Source of the DNA: Candidatus Latescibacterota bacterium
GTDB lineage: Bacteria; Latescibacterota; UBA2968; UBA8231
DNA length: 64,000 bases
Assembly (NCBI GenBank): GCA_965197905.1
Contig: CBDAOB010000005.1
Location: 896,001-960,000 of the forward strand
Reading direction: 5' to 3'
Shown: positions 7,587-12,136 of the stretch, one piece after another
Numbering within the stretch: the first letter of the stretch is position 1
Layout: every line of letters starts with the position of its first letter
Translations under genes and position numbers: made by a program
Notes under the pieces: generated by a model
Seen by the model: the letters and a program-made list of their open reading frames with translations, nothing else
Told to the model about the DNA's origin: nothing
Database searches by the model: none

Positions 7587-10500
7587 TCAAGCATTCGGAG
7601 GCAGTCCAACAAATTGACGACTGTAGGCATCCAGCAGGGGATCGGACTCGCGTTTGTCGGCGGCGCGTGCGAAGACGACTCCGGGGCAGTTCGCCCGCCG
7701 TGCTCGCGGCAGCAGACCGTAGCCGGAAGGCAGCGCTCGTTCACCCGTTCGCTCCAACTCAAACATCTCTCCCATCACCTCGGCAATGCCCCGTCGAGCT
7801 CCCACGACTCGGGCAAACGCCTCGTGCGGTTCTAACCCCTGCCGCCAACCGTGTCGCGTGGGCACGGTCCTGCCATCGATGTCGGTCGTCGCGATATTCG
7901 GGCCGATCAGCTGGAGGAGCTGCATCGTGTTACCCCTCGCTCCGCTCTTGCAAAGCAGGTTCAGCGGCCCGAATTCGTCGTCGTCGATCTCGTCGCATCT
8001 CGCCAACCAATGCAACGCTTCATCGGTGTAGGACTCCCATTGGTCCCGGTCGTCCTCCTCCGGTGGCGAGGGAAGATCCAGGCTAGTGCCGACGAATGGA
8101 TTCATCGACAGACCAAGGGTTTTGGCTTCTTCGAACCCGCGACGCATCAGGCGTTCGGAGGTCGTAAGGGCCTCCTCCACACCTTTGCGCTCGACCATCT
8201 CGCGCAGCGCATCGACAAGCGGCCGGCGTGTGATGAAGGCGGCACCCTTCTCGATTTTCATGCCGGGGAGTTTTTCGATCTCAGCATGGCCTTCCGGTGT
8301 CATACTCAAGCTGGCCAGTCCCACAACGGCATCCATTCGCGGATCCAGGGAGCTGATCAATTCGGGATTCCGCTCAACCACGGCGCGGATAGATAAGCGC
8401 TGCTCCGCCTCGAGCTGCCCAGCTTTGGTGATCGGGAGAAAAACCGCCATCTGGTCGCCGTCGAAATCCGCGTTCATCAACTCGCAAGCAAGCGGAGGTA
8501 GGCGCAGCGCCCGTCCCGGACACCGAACCGGTCGGAAAGCGAGAAAAGAGGAAATAGGGGAAAGCACCCATCCTGTGTAGACAGTCACCCACGAACCCGC
8601 CAGGAGTTGGTCGAGGGATTCTTCCAGCTCGGGCGTCGGCCTGGTGGGTGCGGTCGAGGGTACGGTTTCGCGAGCGAGCAGCGGGCCGAACAGGGTCCAG
8701 CAGATCTCTTCGGGAAGGCCGATCTGATCGTAGTGCAGTTCAGGCCCAGGGGTGGTAACAGTTCGTCCACTGAACAAGACACTGGCGTTGGGAAGCAAAT
8801 CCTTGGGTTTGACAACCGCATTCAAATAGGCGCCGAGCATCTCTTCGAGGTGTGTCTGCGCACTTTCTATCAAGGCCTTTGGGGCGCTGCTGTCGACCAT
8901 CTGTTGAAGGCGAGAATTGGCCGACTCCAGCTCGGCGTATTCCGGCAGCTCCTCAAGTTGCCCGACCCTCTTCAAACGGTGTTGGCGGAACCATGGGTGA
9001 GGAACGGGAAGCGCAAACTGCAAGCAGGGATTCGGTGGCGACTGGAAGGTCAACCGCAGACATTCCTGTTCGAGGGCAACCTGGATTCCCGCGATCTCCA
9101 GGCGCTGGACGAGTCTTGTAAACGACGGTGCAGGCGGACCTGCCTGTCGCAGCTCTCCCTTGCCGACCTTTTCCGCCAGCGTCTCGGATCCGTCGCGCTC
9201 CGCGGCGCAGGTGTTGAAGAGCTCAGACGCGGTCTCGAGCGCGCCGATGTTCGCCAGCATACCATATTCGTTGGCGCCAACCGTTTGCGGCCGGCCATCT
9301 CCAACCGAGGCATGTATCTTGCCGCGCACATCGTGGATCGTGCGGCCCCAGTAGACCCATCCCGCGGTGCTTGGGCGTTGTAGTCTTTTACCGTTAACGG
9401 TAAGGGTTTCCATGCCGTCGCCGGATATTCCCGCTGTCGTCATTCGCTTGCGGAGCTCCTTCTCGCTCGGCGCCTGAAAAGGAGGCACGATCGCCGGTTT
9501 GCTTTCGGTCTTCGCGATACGACCCATCAACGCTTCCCGTACGACCCCAAAATTCATGCGGGATACCAGGCCGCAGACGCTGTAGATCAGGTCGATGGGG
9601 ACCCCGTTCAGGTGCGGCATCTCTACGTCCGGGAGGATGCACGAGACCACACCCTTCGATCCGTGCCGGTTGGAAATCTTGTCACCTACTTCGATTGGGT
9701 GAGGATCCTGGAAACGGGAAGCCGCCGATTCGCTGAGTACAATCGCATCTTCAAAGGTGTAGCCATCCCAGGAGATAAATGCGGTGAGCAGGTTCCGACC
9801 GCACCAGAATTCCGGGACATCAGGCTCCGCGCCGGTTTGGACCAGAGCCGGTTCTGGTTGCGCCTGGGGGGTCCACTGGCGCATCATATTGGCCCCCATC
9901 AGGAGCCGATTCCCGTCACTGTGTTCGAGAAACGGAATCGCGGAGGCGGACAAACCCAGGTTTGCCGCCGGCGTGTTCTCCACTATTTCCAGGCGACTGT
10001 CCCGAATCTCTGCCCCCTGTGCGATGGTGAGGATGCGTCCGACGTTGGGCCCTTCGGGGGTTTCGAAGGGGCAGGTGCGGCCGAAATGACCGGGGGTGAA
10101 GACCTTCTTGCGCTCAGGAATCGACACCCGGCGCAGATGTACTTGCCGAGATAACCAGTTTATTTCGACCAGTTCCTCACCAAGCTGCTGGAGGAATTCG
10201 CGAACCCAGTCGGTGATCGGTACCCATGCGGCAGCAAGGGTTTCCTCCCATTGCATCTCTTGCGGTGCGTCTCCCAGGCGCTGCTCAACAAAGTGGAACA
10301 ACTGCTCGCCCACACAGCGAATCTCAGCTCGATCGAGATCGTCCTCGGTGGCTTTCGGAGATACAACAAGCCACCGACCGTCCATCTCGAAAACCCCCTC
10401 GTCATTTGGCTCAGGCACATCGTCATGTTCCACCACGACCTCGCCGTCCTTTCCGCGCAGAACCACCTTGACCCGGCACCTATGATGTCCGGCTGCTTCG

Positions 10501-10610
10501 GTATGATATCCCACAAGTGGAATCCGCTCGCTCAGTAATTGCGGCAGCAGTTCCTGGATGAACCGATCCCACGAGGTTTTGTGCCAGGGTGCCCCGTAGC
10601 TCAACTTCAT
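7587..10610 (-). CDS. Miniaturised single-chain fusion of RNA polymerase beta and beta' core segments (1007 aa, two-barrel polymerase family)
   Basis: Collinear RpoB motifs: GRTCPFETPEGPNVG, IPFLEHSDGNRLLMGANMMRQ, WDGYTFEDAI, GDKISNRHGSKG, SRMNFG, KIHA. These are followed by RpoC motifs: PVPHPWF, FSGRTV...QIGLP, NADFDGDQMAV at 8454-8474, SGARG, GARRG. ATG at 10610 has a GGAGG RBS and overlaps the sigma stop codon. Confidence 0.93.
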   Translation of the reverse strand: MKLSYGAPWHKTSWDRFIQELLPQLLSERIPLVGYHTEAAGHHRCRVKVVLRGKDGEVVVEHDDVPEPNDEGVFEMDGRWLVVSPKATEDDLDRAEIRCVGEQLFHFVEQRLGDAPQEMQWEETLAAAWVPITDWVREFLQQLGEELVEINWLSRQVHLRRVSIPERKKVFTPGHFGRTCPFETPEGPNVGRILTIAQGAEIRDSRLEIVENTPAANLGLSASAIPFLEHSDGNRLLMGANMMRQWTPQAQPEPALVQTGAEPDVPEFWCGRNLLTAFISWDGYTFEDAIVLSESAASRFQDPHPIEVGDKISNRHGSKGVVSCILPDVEMPHLNGVPIDLIYSVCGLVSRMNFGVVREALMGRIAKTESKPAIVPPFQAPSEKELRKRMTTAGISGDGMETLTVNGKRLQRPSTAGWVYWGRTIHDVRGKIHASVGDGRPQTVGANEYGMLANIGALETASELFNTCAAERDGSETLAEKVGKGELRQAGPPAPSFTRLVQRLEIAGIQVALEQECLRLTFQSPPNPCLQFALPVPHPWFRQHRLKRVGQLEELPEYAELESANSRLQQMVDSSAPKALIESAQTHLEEMLGAYLNAVVKPKDLLPNASVLFSGRTVTTPGPELHYDQIGLPEEICWTLFGPLLARETVPSTAPTRPTPELEESLDQLLAGSWVTVYTGWVLSPISSFLAFRPVRCPGRALRLPPLACELMNADFDGDQMAVFLPITKAGQLEAEQRLSIRAVVERNPELISSLDPRMDAVVGLASLSMTPEGHAEIEKLPGMKIEKGAAFITRRPLVDALREMVERKGVEEALTTSERLMRRGFEEAKTLGLSMNPFVGTSLDLPSPPEEDDRDQWESYTDEALHWLARCDEIDDDEFGPLNLLCKSGARGNTMQLLQLIGPNIATTDIDGRTVPTRHGWRQGLEPHEAFARVVGARRGIAEVMGEMFELERTGERALPSGYGLLPRARRANCPGVVFARAADKRESDPLLDAYSRQFVGLPPNA

Positions 10611-11203
10611 TCGAATTCCTCCCAGTCTATGCCGAGGGCTTTCCACCTTCTGCCGATCTCCCTGCGGCCGTAATGTAAGCGCGATTTTACGGTTCCCGGA
10701 GGTATGCCCAGTTCCTGGGCGACCTCCTTCACCTCCATCTGGGCGTCGTAGATCAAACGCATCACCTCTCGTTTGTCTTCCGGCAGGTCGTCCACGAGAT
10801 CCTGCAATCTATCGCGTACCTCCTTTCGTTCGAGCAGCGTGTCCGCACCAAGCGCAGCCGCATCGACCAACCACACCGGGACGTCGCTTTCATCCTCTTC
10901 AAGATCGAGCCCGGAAGCTTCCAGCGGCTGCTGGCGGCGGCGACGCACGGTGCGGATATGGTTGAGGGCCAGATTGGTGGCTATGCGGTAGAGCCACGAC
11001 AGCAACGATGAACCGCTCCACTGCGCGGAGTGCGACCAGACCCGTAGAAACAACTCCTGGAGCAGGTCTTCGGCCGCACCTCTGTCGCGCACCATCCGTT
11101 GCAGATGGCGAACTAGATCGGTGGAGTATCGTTGATGGAGCTCTTCGAACGCCTTTTCGTCCCGGCTTCGAATGCGCACCATGAGGTCATGGTCAGTGTC
11201 CAA
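10607..11203 (-). CDS. ECF (sigma-70 group 4) RNA polymerase sigma factor
   Basis: Region 2: AAEDLLQELFLRVW...SWLYRIATNLALNH. Region 4: LPEDKREV...EVAQELGIPPGTVKSRLHYGR. TTG start with GGGAGG RBS. Confidence 0.95.
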   Translation of the reverse strand: MDTDHDLMVRIRSRDEKAFEELHQRYSTDLVRHLQRMVRDRGAAEDLLQELFLRVWSHSAQWSGSSLLSWLYRIATNLALNHIRTVRRRRQQPLEASGLDLEEDESDVPVWLVDAAALGADTLLERKEVRDRLQDLVDDLPEDKREVMRLIYDAQMEVKEVAQELGIPPGTVKSRLHYGRREIGRRWKALGIDWEEFE

Positions 11204-11222
11204 ACAACCTCCCTACTGCTCA

Positions 11223-11249
11223 TGACACCGAATGAAACGGAGGGGTTCA
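11223..11249 (-). promoter_or_regulatory. Putative ECF-type (autoregulatory) promoter TGAACC-N16-TGTCA for the sigma / mini-RNAP operon
   Basis: Minus strand reads TGAACC cctccgtttcattcgg TGTCA about 20 nt upstream of the sigma start. This fits the general ECF pattern of AAC in -35 and GTC/CGT in -10. Confidence 0.55.
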
Positions 11250-11349: not shown

Positions 11350-12136
11350 TTGGGCTTGAGCGAATACGAAGCCGGAGCCTATCTCTCCCTCCTGAGCTGC
11401 CAACCAGCAACGGCATACGAACTTGCCAAGGTATCCGGCATCCCGAGCTCGAAAATCTATGAAACAGCCAACCGCCTGGTAGACAAGAAGCTTATCGAGC
11501 CGGTTACCGCCGATAGTGGACGCGGGCAACGCTACATCGCCGTGGGGGCCGAGGACTTTATCTCCATCAAACGCGAGGAGGTTGCGCGCCAGACAAACGT
11601 GCTTGAGCCTCTCCTGAAGGCCGCCAGCAACGGTATGGAAGCGGACTTTATCTGGCAACTGGACGGGGCCGACGGGCTCGAGGATAAAACGCGCCCAATT
11701 GATTCGGGAGGCAGAAGGAACCGTGTTGGCCTCCCTGTGGCAAGCCGAGTTCGATGCCTATGACGACGATCTGCAAGCCGCCGAGCGGTGGGGTGTCGGT
11801 CTCGCCCTGGTGCACTACGGCGCGCCCGCCAGGCGCTTGGGGGCAACCTTTCACCACCCCGTGGAAGAGACGATCCGGCAGGAACGGGGCGGGCGCGGCC
11901 TTACCCTCGTTGTCGATCAACGCTGCGTGGTCATCGCCACTTACTTCGACGACGGTCGCGTGGAAGGGGCCTGGAGCCGAAATCGGGCGTTTGTCTTTGT
12001 TGCCGAAGACTGCGTCCGGCACGACGTCTATATCACCAAGGTTACGGCAACCATGGATGACGATCTCAAGCGCAACTTCGGGGCGGACTACGAAAAACTG
12101 CGTGATGTGTTTCAAGCGGTGGAGCGGGAGTCGTGA
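11350..12136 (+). CDS. TrmB-family transcriptional regulator, split by a +1 frameshift near 11694-11696 (probable sequencing error)
   Basis: N-terminal LGLSEYEAGAYLSLL...TAYELAKVSGIPSSKIYE wHTH. The effector-binding half (LTLVVD...HDVY) is in the next frame. Removing one C from gcgccc gives ...KTRQLIREAE. Confidence 0.8.

Follow-up and report, generated by a model that had tools for sequence, protein, structure and literature searches.

An ECF sigma factor and a flap-less single-chain mini RNA polymerase form a conserved, apparently undescribed two-gene unit in Latescibacterota and other phyla

A 64,000-nucleotide stretch of DNA from a Candidatus Latescibacterota bacterium (assembly GCA_965197905.1, contig CBDAOB010000005.1, positions 896,001 to 960,000; hereafter the window) carries on its minus strand a gene for an extracytoplasmic function (ECF)-type sigma factor followed by a gene for a single-chain mini RNA polymerase, and we found that this sigma factor and its flap-less polymerase make up a conserved, apparently undescribed two-gene unit. 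The sigma gene (10607..11203; Pfam Sigma70_r2 and Sigma70_r4_2, TIGR02937) begins with TTG and encodes 198 amino acids, and the mini-polymerase gene (7587..10610; Pfam Rpb2_3, Rpb2_6 and Rpb1_2, AlphaFold2) encodes 1007; the sigma stop codon overlaps the start codon of the polymerase gene in the four nucleotides ATGA (10607..10610). We favour the reading that the two proteins form a minimal sigma-guided holoenzyme, to which we give slightly less than an even chance, and we infer it from a conserved face on the hairpin of the clamp helices, a clade-specific sigma linker, frequent coupling of the two genes and an intact active site. Conservation was counted over a family alignment of 118 relatives of the mini-polymerase, a set of 47 cognate sigma factors and 44 loci in which both members are paired.

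The mini-polymerase consists of the fused catalytic cores of beta and beta', pruned to about one-third of their normal mass. Its beta-derived half spans approximately residues 1-520 and its beta'-derived half approximately 530-1007, in agreement with the Pfam order Rpb2_3, Rpb2_6, Rpb1_2 (beta, then beta'), and the protein matches beta at E 1e-39, with 24-30% identity to solved beta and beta' chains. The AlphaFold2 model built on the family alignment reached a predicted local distance difference test score of 94.5 and a predicted template modelling score of 0.91. In a VIA-align superposition, residues 1-518 of the model fit the beta chain 8i23_C (22-1165) with a Z score of 29.5 and a root-mean-square deviation (rmsd) of 2.4 over 511 aligned residues, and this half is a beta skeleton without lobe and flap, while residues 514-1007, folded alone, fit E. 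coli beta' 16-1360 (Z 28.8, rmsd 5.8, 476 aligned). The chain scores far below the cut-offs of both the rpoB equivalog TIGR02013 (166.2 bits, cut-off 801.15) and the rpoC equivalog TIGR02386 (94.5 bits, cut-off 963.5), and a separate, normal rpoB-rpoC pair elsewhere in the genome passes them with 1835 and 1766 bits, so the mini-polymerase is an extra, pruned and fused paralogue.

The clearest deletion removed the flap. Only 14 residues lie between EDAIVLSE and GDK (residues 287-311; 9678..9752, minus strand), against 261 between the ED and GDK motifs in the canonical rpoB of the same genome. This spacing of 14 is shared by 111 of the 118 relatives, with a maximum of 39, and the loss of the flap noted in the first-pass annotation is confirmed. 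With the flap domain went the flap-tip helix, the dock of sigma region 4. The beta' zinc-binding domain is absent as well, because the beta'-derived part begins at the PVxHxW strand with no cysteine cluster before it, and the rudder region is reduced to about 11 residues in an hhalign comparison with canonical beta'. The bridge helix (residues 928-956; 7743..7829, minus strand) was recognised by hhalign onto the beta' bridge helix and by an AlphaFold2 helix over the same residues. The chain stops 51 residues beyond it (51-59 in the commonest family lengths), which leaves no trigger loop, and the similarity of its tail to the end of beta' region H is weak (E 0.09). In sum, only part of the rudder is left, and the chain has no flap, zinc domain, trigger loop, jaw or beta lobe.

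Deletion on this scale relative to rpoB and rpoC, along with split or truncated copies at three loci (L031, L050 and L055), could suggest a decaying duplicate of the two genes that has no function. However, there are more than 1000 full-length homologues of 1000-1070 amino acids, the top matches are 45-59% identical with 50 invariant columns, the frame is intact, the AlphaFold2 model is confident and the deletion boundaries are uniform across the family. We give decay a negligible chance, and judge it effectively refuted by this pattern of conservation in the sequences.

What has been kept in the beta' half includes a homologue of the clamp helices, the coiled coil at residues 556-599 (8814..8945, minus strand), located by phmmer, hhalign, a segment profile and AlphaFold2. 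The peptide YAELESANSRLQQMVDSSAPKALIESAQTHLEEMLGAYL, residues 558-596 of the mini-polymerase (minus-strand translation of 8823-8939), had been aligned with the clamp helices by eye. A phmmer search against PDB chains returned the same alignment, to beta' 269-307 in E. coli-like numbering, at 0.7 bits, which is not significant alone. When the 118 relatives were compared by hhalign with 24 canonical beta' sequences drawn from the genome itself and its relatives, a single colinear match joined mini-polymerase residues 534-951 to beta' 225-758 (Prob 99.9, E 3e-36) and passed through the hairpin. The 52-column clamp-helix segment alone found the same beta' columns (E 5.3e-5, score 35.7; best of 30 column-shuffled controls, 19.3), and AlphaFold2 places helices at 556-573 and 578-599 as a helical hairpin, so that the alignment by eye is borne out. 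The hairpin is exactly 40 residues long in all 118 relatives, with no insertions or deletions. Profile and model together indicate that residues 556-599 are a true clamp-helix homologue.

Parts of one paper name R275, R278, R281, L282, L285, I291, E295 and M298 as the sigma-32 interface on E. coli beta' (PMC10216364), and half of these eight positions keep their character in the mini-polymerase family. The R278 equivalent is R in 107 and K in 10 of the 118 relatives, the R281 equivalent is R in 108, the L282 equivalent is M or L, and the I291 equivalent is L in 115. Not kept are the equivalents of R275 (A or V), L285 (S or N), E295 (A or T) and M298 (Q). In the protein of the window the R281 equivalent is Q570, so that the family keeps this position and this protein does not. 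The first-pass annotation had described the basic clamp residues as largely replaced, and this was half right, because the R278 and R281 equivalents are kept in the family and those of R270, R271, R275, K280, R293 and R297 are not. N565, the equivalent of N276, is N in 116 of 118 relatives, and the proline at the hairpin tip is invariant. The hairpin thus still has a conserved, if smaller, face of polar and hydrophobic residues.

The active site is close to invariant. The catalytic motif NADFDGDQ (residues 713-720; 8451..8474, minus strand) lies in a beta' double-psi barrel (Pfam Rpb1_2, E 3e-15), and its metal-binding aspartates are conserved in 116 (D715), 117 (D717) and 118 (D719) of the 118 relatives. 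The beta double-psi barrel is also present (Pfam Rpb2_6, E 1e-34), with E287-D288 and the GDK...RHG-KG motif, in which G309, D310, K311, R315 and G317 are invariant and H316 and K319 are found in 116 and 117 relatives, respectively. The fork motif is nearly invariant and the bridge-helix residue R939 is conserved in 116 relatives. Both double-psi barrels and the bridge helix, the makings of a two-barrel catalytic core, are therefore in place.

This conservation bears on a second proposal of the first-pass annotation, in which the mini-polymerase is a core mimic that serves as a soluble anti-sigma: its clamp helices would bind sigma region 2 and hold the sigma factor back from the host core, perhaps until a signal releases it. 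The gene coupled downstream of an ECF sigma gene usually encodes its anti-sigma, and the mini-polymerase gene occupies this slot, directly behind the sigma gene, in 51 of the 52 loci with upstream DNA, as had been proposed. No anti-sigma gene adjoins the sigma gene in the window, as also noted earlier; the flanking genes encode a TrmB-type regulator and a GFO/IDH/MocA oxidoreductase. An autoregulated sigma factor without an anti-sigma needs a brake. The retention of the clamp helices together with the loss of the region 4 dock would suit such a decoy. However, a decoy needs no active site, and the barrels, D715, D717 and D719, the GDK/RHG-KG motif with R315, the fork motif and the bridge helix hardly vary among relatives from several phyla, which argues against a pure decoy. 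About 1000 residues would also be a costly display of a 40-residue hairpin, and a sigma factor whose sole visible target is the operon of its decoy would have no output. No anti-sigma family in Pfam or NCBIfam matched the mini-polymerase at E values up to 0.1, a result that is compatible with a new kind of anti-sigma. Known ECF anti-sigmas share with the mini-polymerase the position of the gene, immediately downstream of and often coupled to the sigma gene; unlike them, the mini-polymerase is cytoplasmic, about 1000 residues long and equipped with an intact polymerase active site, and no anti-sigma domain was detected in it. As the whole story, the decoy is disfavoured and we consider it improbable.

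The sigma factor comprises regions 2 and 4 only (Sigma70_r2 at residues 22-88, Sigma70_r4_2 at 131-182), scores 105.6 bits against TIGR02937 (cut-off 42.9), as expected of the ECF type, and aligns over its full length to the AlgU, SigW and E. coli sigma-E chains. The surface of region 2.2 touches the beta' clamp helices in ordinary holoenzymes. In this sigma factor the region reads AEDLLQE (residues 44-50; 11054..11074, minus strand), and the earlier observation that the motif is kept extends to the 47 cognate sigmas, all of which have D46 and Q49, with E50 conserved in at least 90%. On the sigma-32 side of the interface, passages of the same source list D77, E81, I84 and M87 (PMC10216364). 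Region 4 (residues 131-182; 10658..10813, minus strand; Pfam Sigma70_r4_2, E 1e-12) contains the helix-turn-helix that reads the -35 element, and L165, P168, G170, T171, S174 and R175 are invariant in it. A compensatory change between W56 of the sigma factor and the altered hairpin was considered and dropped, as three other sigma frames of the genome also have W there, and no clear covariation between the hairpin and region 2.2 was seen by eye in the 44 paired sequences.

The segment between the two regions distinguishes this sigma factor from ordinary ECF sigmas. The linker motif VPVWLVD (residues 108-114; 10862..10882, minus strand) follows a consensus P109-x-W111-L-I-D114 ... G-P120, in which D114 never varies among the 47 sigmas and P109, W111 and P120 each show conservation of at least 90%. 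These sigmas also have in common a QW-G-G motif that follows region 2.2 and a tail with an acidic W-E-E. In the genome of the window the linker motif occurs in one of 15 sigma-70-family frames, the cognate sigma alone, and the QW-G-G motif is absent from the other 14; a profile of the clade gives the cognate sigma 285.8 bits and the other 14 frames at most 107. Linkers of ordinary ECF sigmas are described in one study as non-conserved segments that run through the RNA exit channel and the cleft of the active centre (PMC6372665), in contrast to the conserved linker of the mini-linked sigmas. The sigma factor thus belongs to a distinct clade with a conserved linker, which is unusual for ECFs.

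A promoter-like element lies upstream of the sigma gene, with TGAAC (11249-11245) and GGTGTC (11229-11224) separated by 15 nucleotides (11224..11249, minus strand; read from the sequence and matched to the family motif). It ends 20 nucleotides ahead of the TTG start codon, which is preceded by the ribosome-binding site GGGAGG. Of the 47 regions upstream of sigma genes, 44 contain the pattern GAAC-N14-17-G[GT]TGT[CA] (N15 in 41, N14 in three; missing at L007, L044 and L046), and a promoter of the TGAAC-N15-GGTGTC type is conserved ahead of the unit across phyla. In a position weight matrix (PWM) scan of the 6.69-Mb genome, the site of the unit, which is itself part of the matrix, scored 36.0 bits and the runner-up 17.8. 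The exact core occurs four times in this genome against two to three times in shuffled versions, and each of the remaining three copies sits within a long open frame. Among related genomes, G016, G020, G023 and G024 have it once each, always beside the sigma-mini unit, and a fifth, G002, has it seven times, once at the unit. A search for a wider regulon, made with the PWM, with exact patterns and with shuffled controls, yielded no site beyond that of the operon itself in the genome of the window and four related complete genomes. With the only strong site of each checked genome located at the unit, the visible regulon consists of sigma and mini-polymerase alone, and the motifs suggest that the ECF sigma is autoregulated via a GAAC/GTC-type promoter.

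The promoter stays with the mini-polymerase gene when the latter is separated from its sigma, as two independent cases illustrate. At L037 a 789-nucleotide insertion parts the two genes, and the mini-polymerase gene has a second copy of the promoter of its own. At L018 (3930-7168) the sigma gene is absent and a transposase-like gene lies upstream, and the promoter motif still stands just before the mini-polymerase gene; the same genome (G025) has a complete sigma-mini unit, with a second mini-polymerase copy, on another contig (L102), and its cognate sigma scores 292 bits against 122 for the next sigma. Downstream of the promoter, AGTAG is found 6-7 nucleotides after GGTGTC (region 11210-11223), and AGTRG is conserved in more than 40 loci. 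It is not simply a ribosome-binding site, because it is kept where the leader is about 100 nucleotides long (L009, L036 and L037), and it may be a mark of either the transcription start or the sequence transcribed first.

These promoter data are where the strongest rival to the minimal holoenzyme has its footing, namely that the sigma factor is only a switch. The host core, with its flap and zinc domain, would use the TGAAC-N15-GGTGTC promoter, the regulon would be the operon itself, and the mini-polymerase would act free of sigma, like YonO, on another template or substrate, its clamp helices having been kept for structural reasons or for NusG. The sigma factor is indeed alignable end to end to ordinary ECF sigmas with a canonical region 2.2, the promoter's geometry and rigid spacing are those of ordinary ECF promoters, the one strong site per genome is at the unit, the promoter goes with the mini-polymerase gene once the genes separate, and every known dock for region 4 is missing from the mini-polymerase. 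On the other hand, a switch leaves unexplained why the clade has its own linker and QW-G-G motif, which the genome's other 14 sigma frames lack, why N565, R567 and R570 of the hairpin are conserved, and why sigma and mini-polymerase are frequently coupled in translation. We regard a mere switch as possible, on the doubtful side.

In the minimal holoenzyme that we favour, the retained clamp helices would receive sigma region 2 by way of N565, R567, R570 and the hydrophobic face, and region 4, without its seat on the flap tip, would be positioned by the family-specific linker or the C-terminal tail. The resulting sigma-guided polymerase would be catalytically active but slow or error-prone, as proposed from the lack of a trigger loop. 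A more specific version, which we hold rather unlikely, is that this is the smallest sigma-guided transcription machine known, one 1007-residue chain with a 198-residue sigma, in which region 2 sits on the clamp helices and region 4 is held by the P-x-W-L-I-D ... G-P linker and the W-E-E tail, so that a normal two-element promoter would be read without an RNA exit channel. Without the flap, jaw, lobe and trigger loop, which are hit by many phage proteins and antibiotics, such an enzyme could possibly be an inhibitor-proof back-up or a special-purpose polymerase.

Several points weigh against the minimal holoenzyme. Contact between the sigma factor and the mini-polymerase is a proposal, and a complex prediction with the sigma factor and residues 211-1007 of the mini-polymerase (the N-terminal 210 left off) scored 0.00 in two runs without controls and is neutral. 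With the flap and the zinc domain gone, there is no known dock for region 4. Retention of the clamp helices is not evidence specific to sigma, because these helices also dock NusG/Spt5. Four of the eight canonical interface positions differ (the R275, L285, E295 and M298 equivalents), Q570 at the R281 equivalent is a state found in only two of 118 relatives, and in three of the 118 a catalytic aspartate is replaced. No second promoter of the TGAAC-N15-GGTGTC type was found in the genome or in the four related complete genomes, and use of this promoter by the host core is the simplest account, because its rigid spacing (N15 in 41 of 44) is like that of ordinary ECF promoters. The private holoenzyme for a dedicated regulon that the first-pass annotation had put forward is therefore upheld in part: the sigma clade has its own linker motif and the pair co-evolves, but no regulon was seen beyond its own promoter, and the ECF spacing suits the host core equally.

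The co-inheritance of the pair is seen across a wide range of bacteria. A word-indexed search gave at least 1023 relatives of the mini-polymerase at E <= 0.001; the top matches listed were 1001-1068 amino acids long, and all relatives listed were unnamed or called 'hypothetical protein'. We located 60 loci in representative genomes of Latescibacterota, Poribacteria, Planctomycetota, Chloroflexota, Armatimonadota, Hydrogenedentota and Spirochaetales, and the mini-polymerase of the Latescibacterota locus L001 is 91% identical to that of the window. Of 52 loci, 51 have a homologous sigma gene ahead of the mini-polymerase gene and on its strand, and eight more loci end at a contig edge. Sigma and mini-polymerase genes meet at junctions of -4 or -1 nucleotides in 13 of 46 loci, while in Poribacteria they are separated by gaps of 64-324 nucleotides. 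Pairwise distances of the two proteins are correlated (r = 0.92; 946 pairs, 44 loci) with mean divergences of 0.45 and 0.46, which shows co-inheritance, not binding. Beyond close relatives, no third gene is conserved at the 60 loci. Mini-type frames were present in 11 of 25 genomes, comprising that of the window and 24 relatives. PADLOC gave no match for the mini-polymerase and PHROG only partial matches to full-size phage beta and beta' homologues, and a defence or phage affiliation was rejected on these grounds.

Compared with known systems, the mini-polymerase is closest in its parts to bacterial RNA polymerase working with ECF sigmas (M. tuberculosis sigma-L and sigma-H, E. coli sigma-E). 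It shares with that enzyme both double-psi barrels, NADFDGD, GDK...RHG-KG, the fork motif, the bridge helix and the clamp helices, and the unit shares with ECF holoenzymes a sigma partner made of regions 2 and 4 and a GAAC ... GTC-type promoter. The bacterial core, however, has about 2650 residues in two chains plus alpha2 and omega, against one chain of 1007, and it has the flap, zinc domain, trigger loop, jaw and lobe that the mini-polymerase is without, as well as a rudder that is not shortened. Natural beta::beta' fusions (NCBIfam NF011417 and NF007172) also join beta and then beta' in one polypeptide, but they are complete, at about 2840-2890 amino acids, and replace rpoB and rpoC, whereas the mini-polymerase coexists with normal rpoBC and scores 162 bits against the full-length fusion family (cut-off 4632).

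Two smaller enzymes invite comparison. YonO of the B. subtilis SPbeta prophage is, as described in part of its published account, a single-chain two-barrel RNA polymerase of about 100 kDa that is an efficient enzyme without trigger loop, flap, lid, zipper, rudder or lobe (PMC5467207). In sequence it bears next to no resemblance to cellular RNA polymerase, whereas the mini-polymerase has the match to beta given above, and it is prophage-borne with no link to a sigma factor, whereas the mini-polymerase family is chromosomal. Orf6 of the yeast cytoplasmic linear plasmid pGKL2, a 982-residue Rpb2::Rpb1 fusion, is likewise a single chain of about 1000 residues with the second-largest subunit before the largest and about half of each deleted, according to sections of a 2010 survey of non-canonical two-barrel enzymes (PMC2919709); the abstract of another paper describes the yeast enzyme as having two subunits (PMC6211774). 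Orf6 is eukaryotic, of virus-like-element origin and without sigma, while the mini-polymerase is much closer to bacterial beta and beta'.

Full-text literature searches found no description of the sigma-mini family. In its available portion, the 2010 survey covers pGKL2 Orf6 and NCgl1702 and not the mini-polymerase family (PMC2919709). The ECF reclassification paper has no mention of it in the main text or in one supplement, and its further supplements could list the sigma group. If the unit is a working holoenzyme, it would show how little of a bacterial polymerase sigma-directed initiation needs, and would be a natural test of what is contributed by the flap, zinc domain, lid, rudder and trigger loop. 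It would also give synthetic biology a small, orthogonal pair of sigma and polymerase, and structural work a tractable target. If the mini-polymerase works without sigma, it would be a chromosomal enzyme with an unassigned product, spread over at least seven phylum-level groups.

Some further observations concern the surroundings and variants of the unit. The TrmB-family regulator gene (11350-11763, plus strand; Pfam E 1e-15) is divergent from the sigma promoter region and is not conserved with the unit across phyla at the 60 loci. Five public sequencing runs contain the segment 7400-11400 of the window, all of DNA or unknown type and from two studies, with no RNA run listed. One Latescibacterota chromosome (contig OZ240241.1) carries two diverged units, L004 and L007, each with its own sigma and with mini-polymerases 48% and 38% identical to that of the window. 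At L031, L050 and L055 the mini-polymerase gene lies in two or three frames, and at L031 the sigma gene is split too; these copies are possibly pseudogenes or assembly errors.

No clean full-length fusion was found among the candidates for a natural sigma-mini fusion, and fusion was therefore dropped as evidence of linkage: P0121 looks like frameshifted read-through, and P0131 is a spurious frame whose end belongs to an unrelated sigma. A third frame, P0132 (751 amino acids; a metagenome cluster with five members on one contig), runs from sigma region 2 and the linker (about 125 residues) in frame into the mini-polymerase from about residue 415; it has neither region 4 nor any of the beta barrel and retains NADYDGD and the clamp helices. 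Such a chain may have arisen by deletion, or may hint that the beta' half and region 2 form a natural pair. Lastly, the genome of the window contains a third polymerase-like gene (G000:C3, L101:3314-9067, plus strand), a frame of 1917 amino acids that is an apparent alpha::beta::beta' triple fusion, with the alpha N-terminal domains RNA_pol_L and RNA_pol_A_bac (together residues 20-197), then Rpb2_3, a full Rpb2_6 and Rpb2_7 of beta, then Rpb1_2 to Rpb1_5 of beta'. Among the 25 genomes searched, it occurs only here and in the same-genus genome G002, with no adjoining sigma frame, and a 1841-residue frame from Vicinamibacterales (L064) may resemble it.

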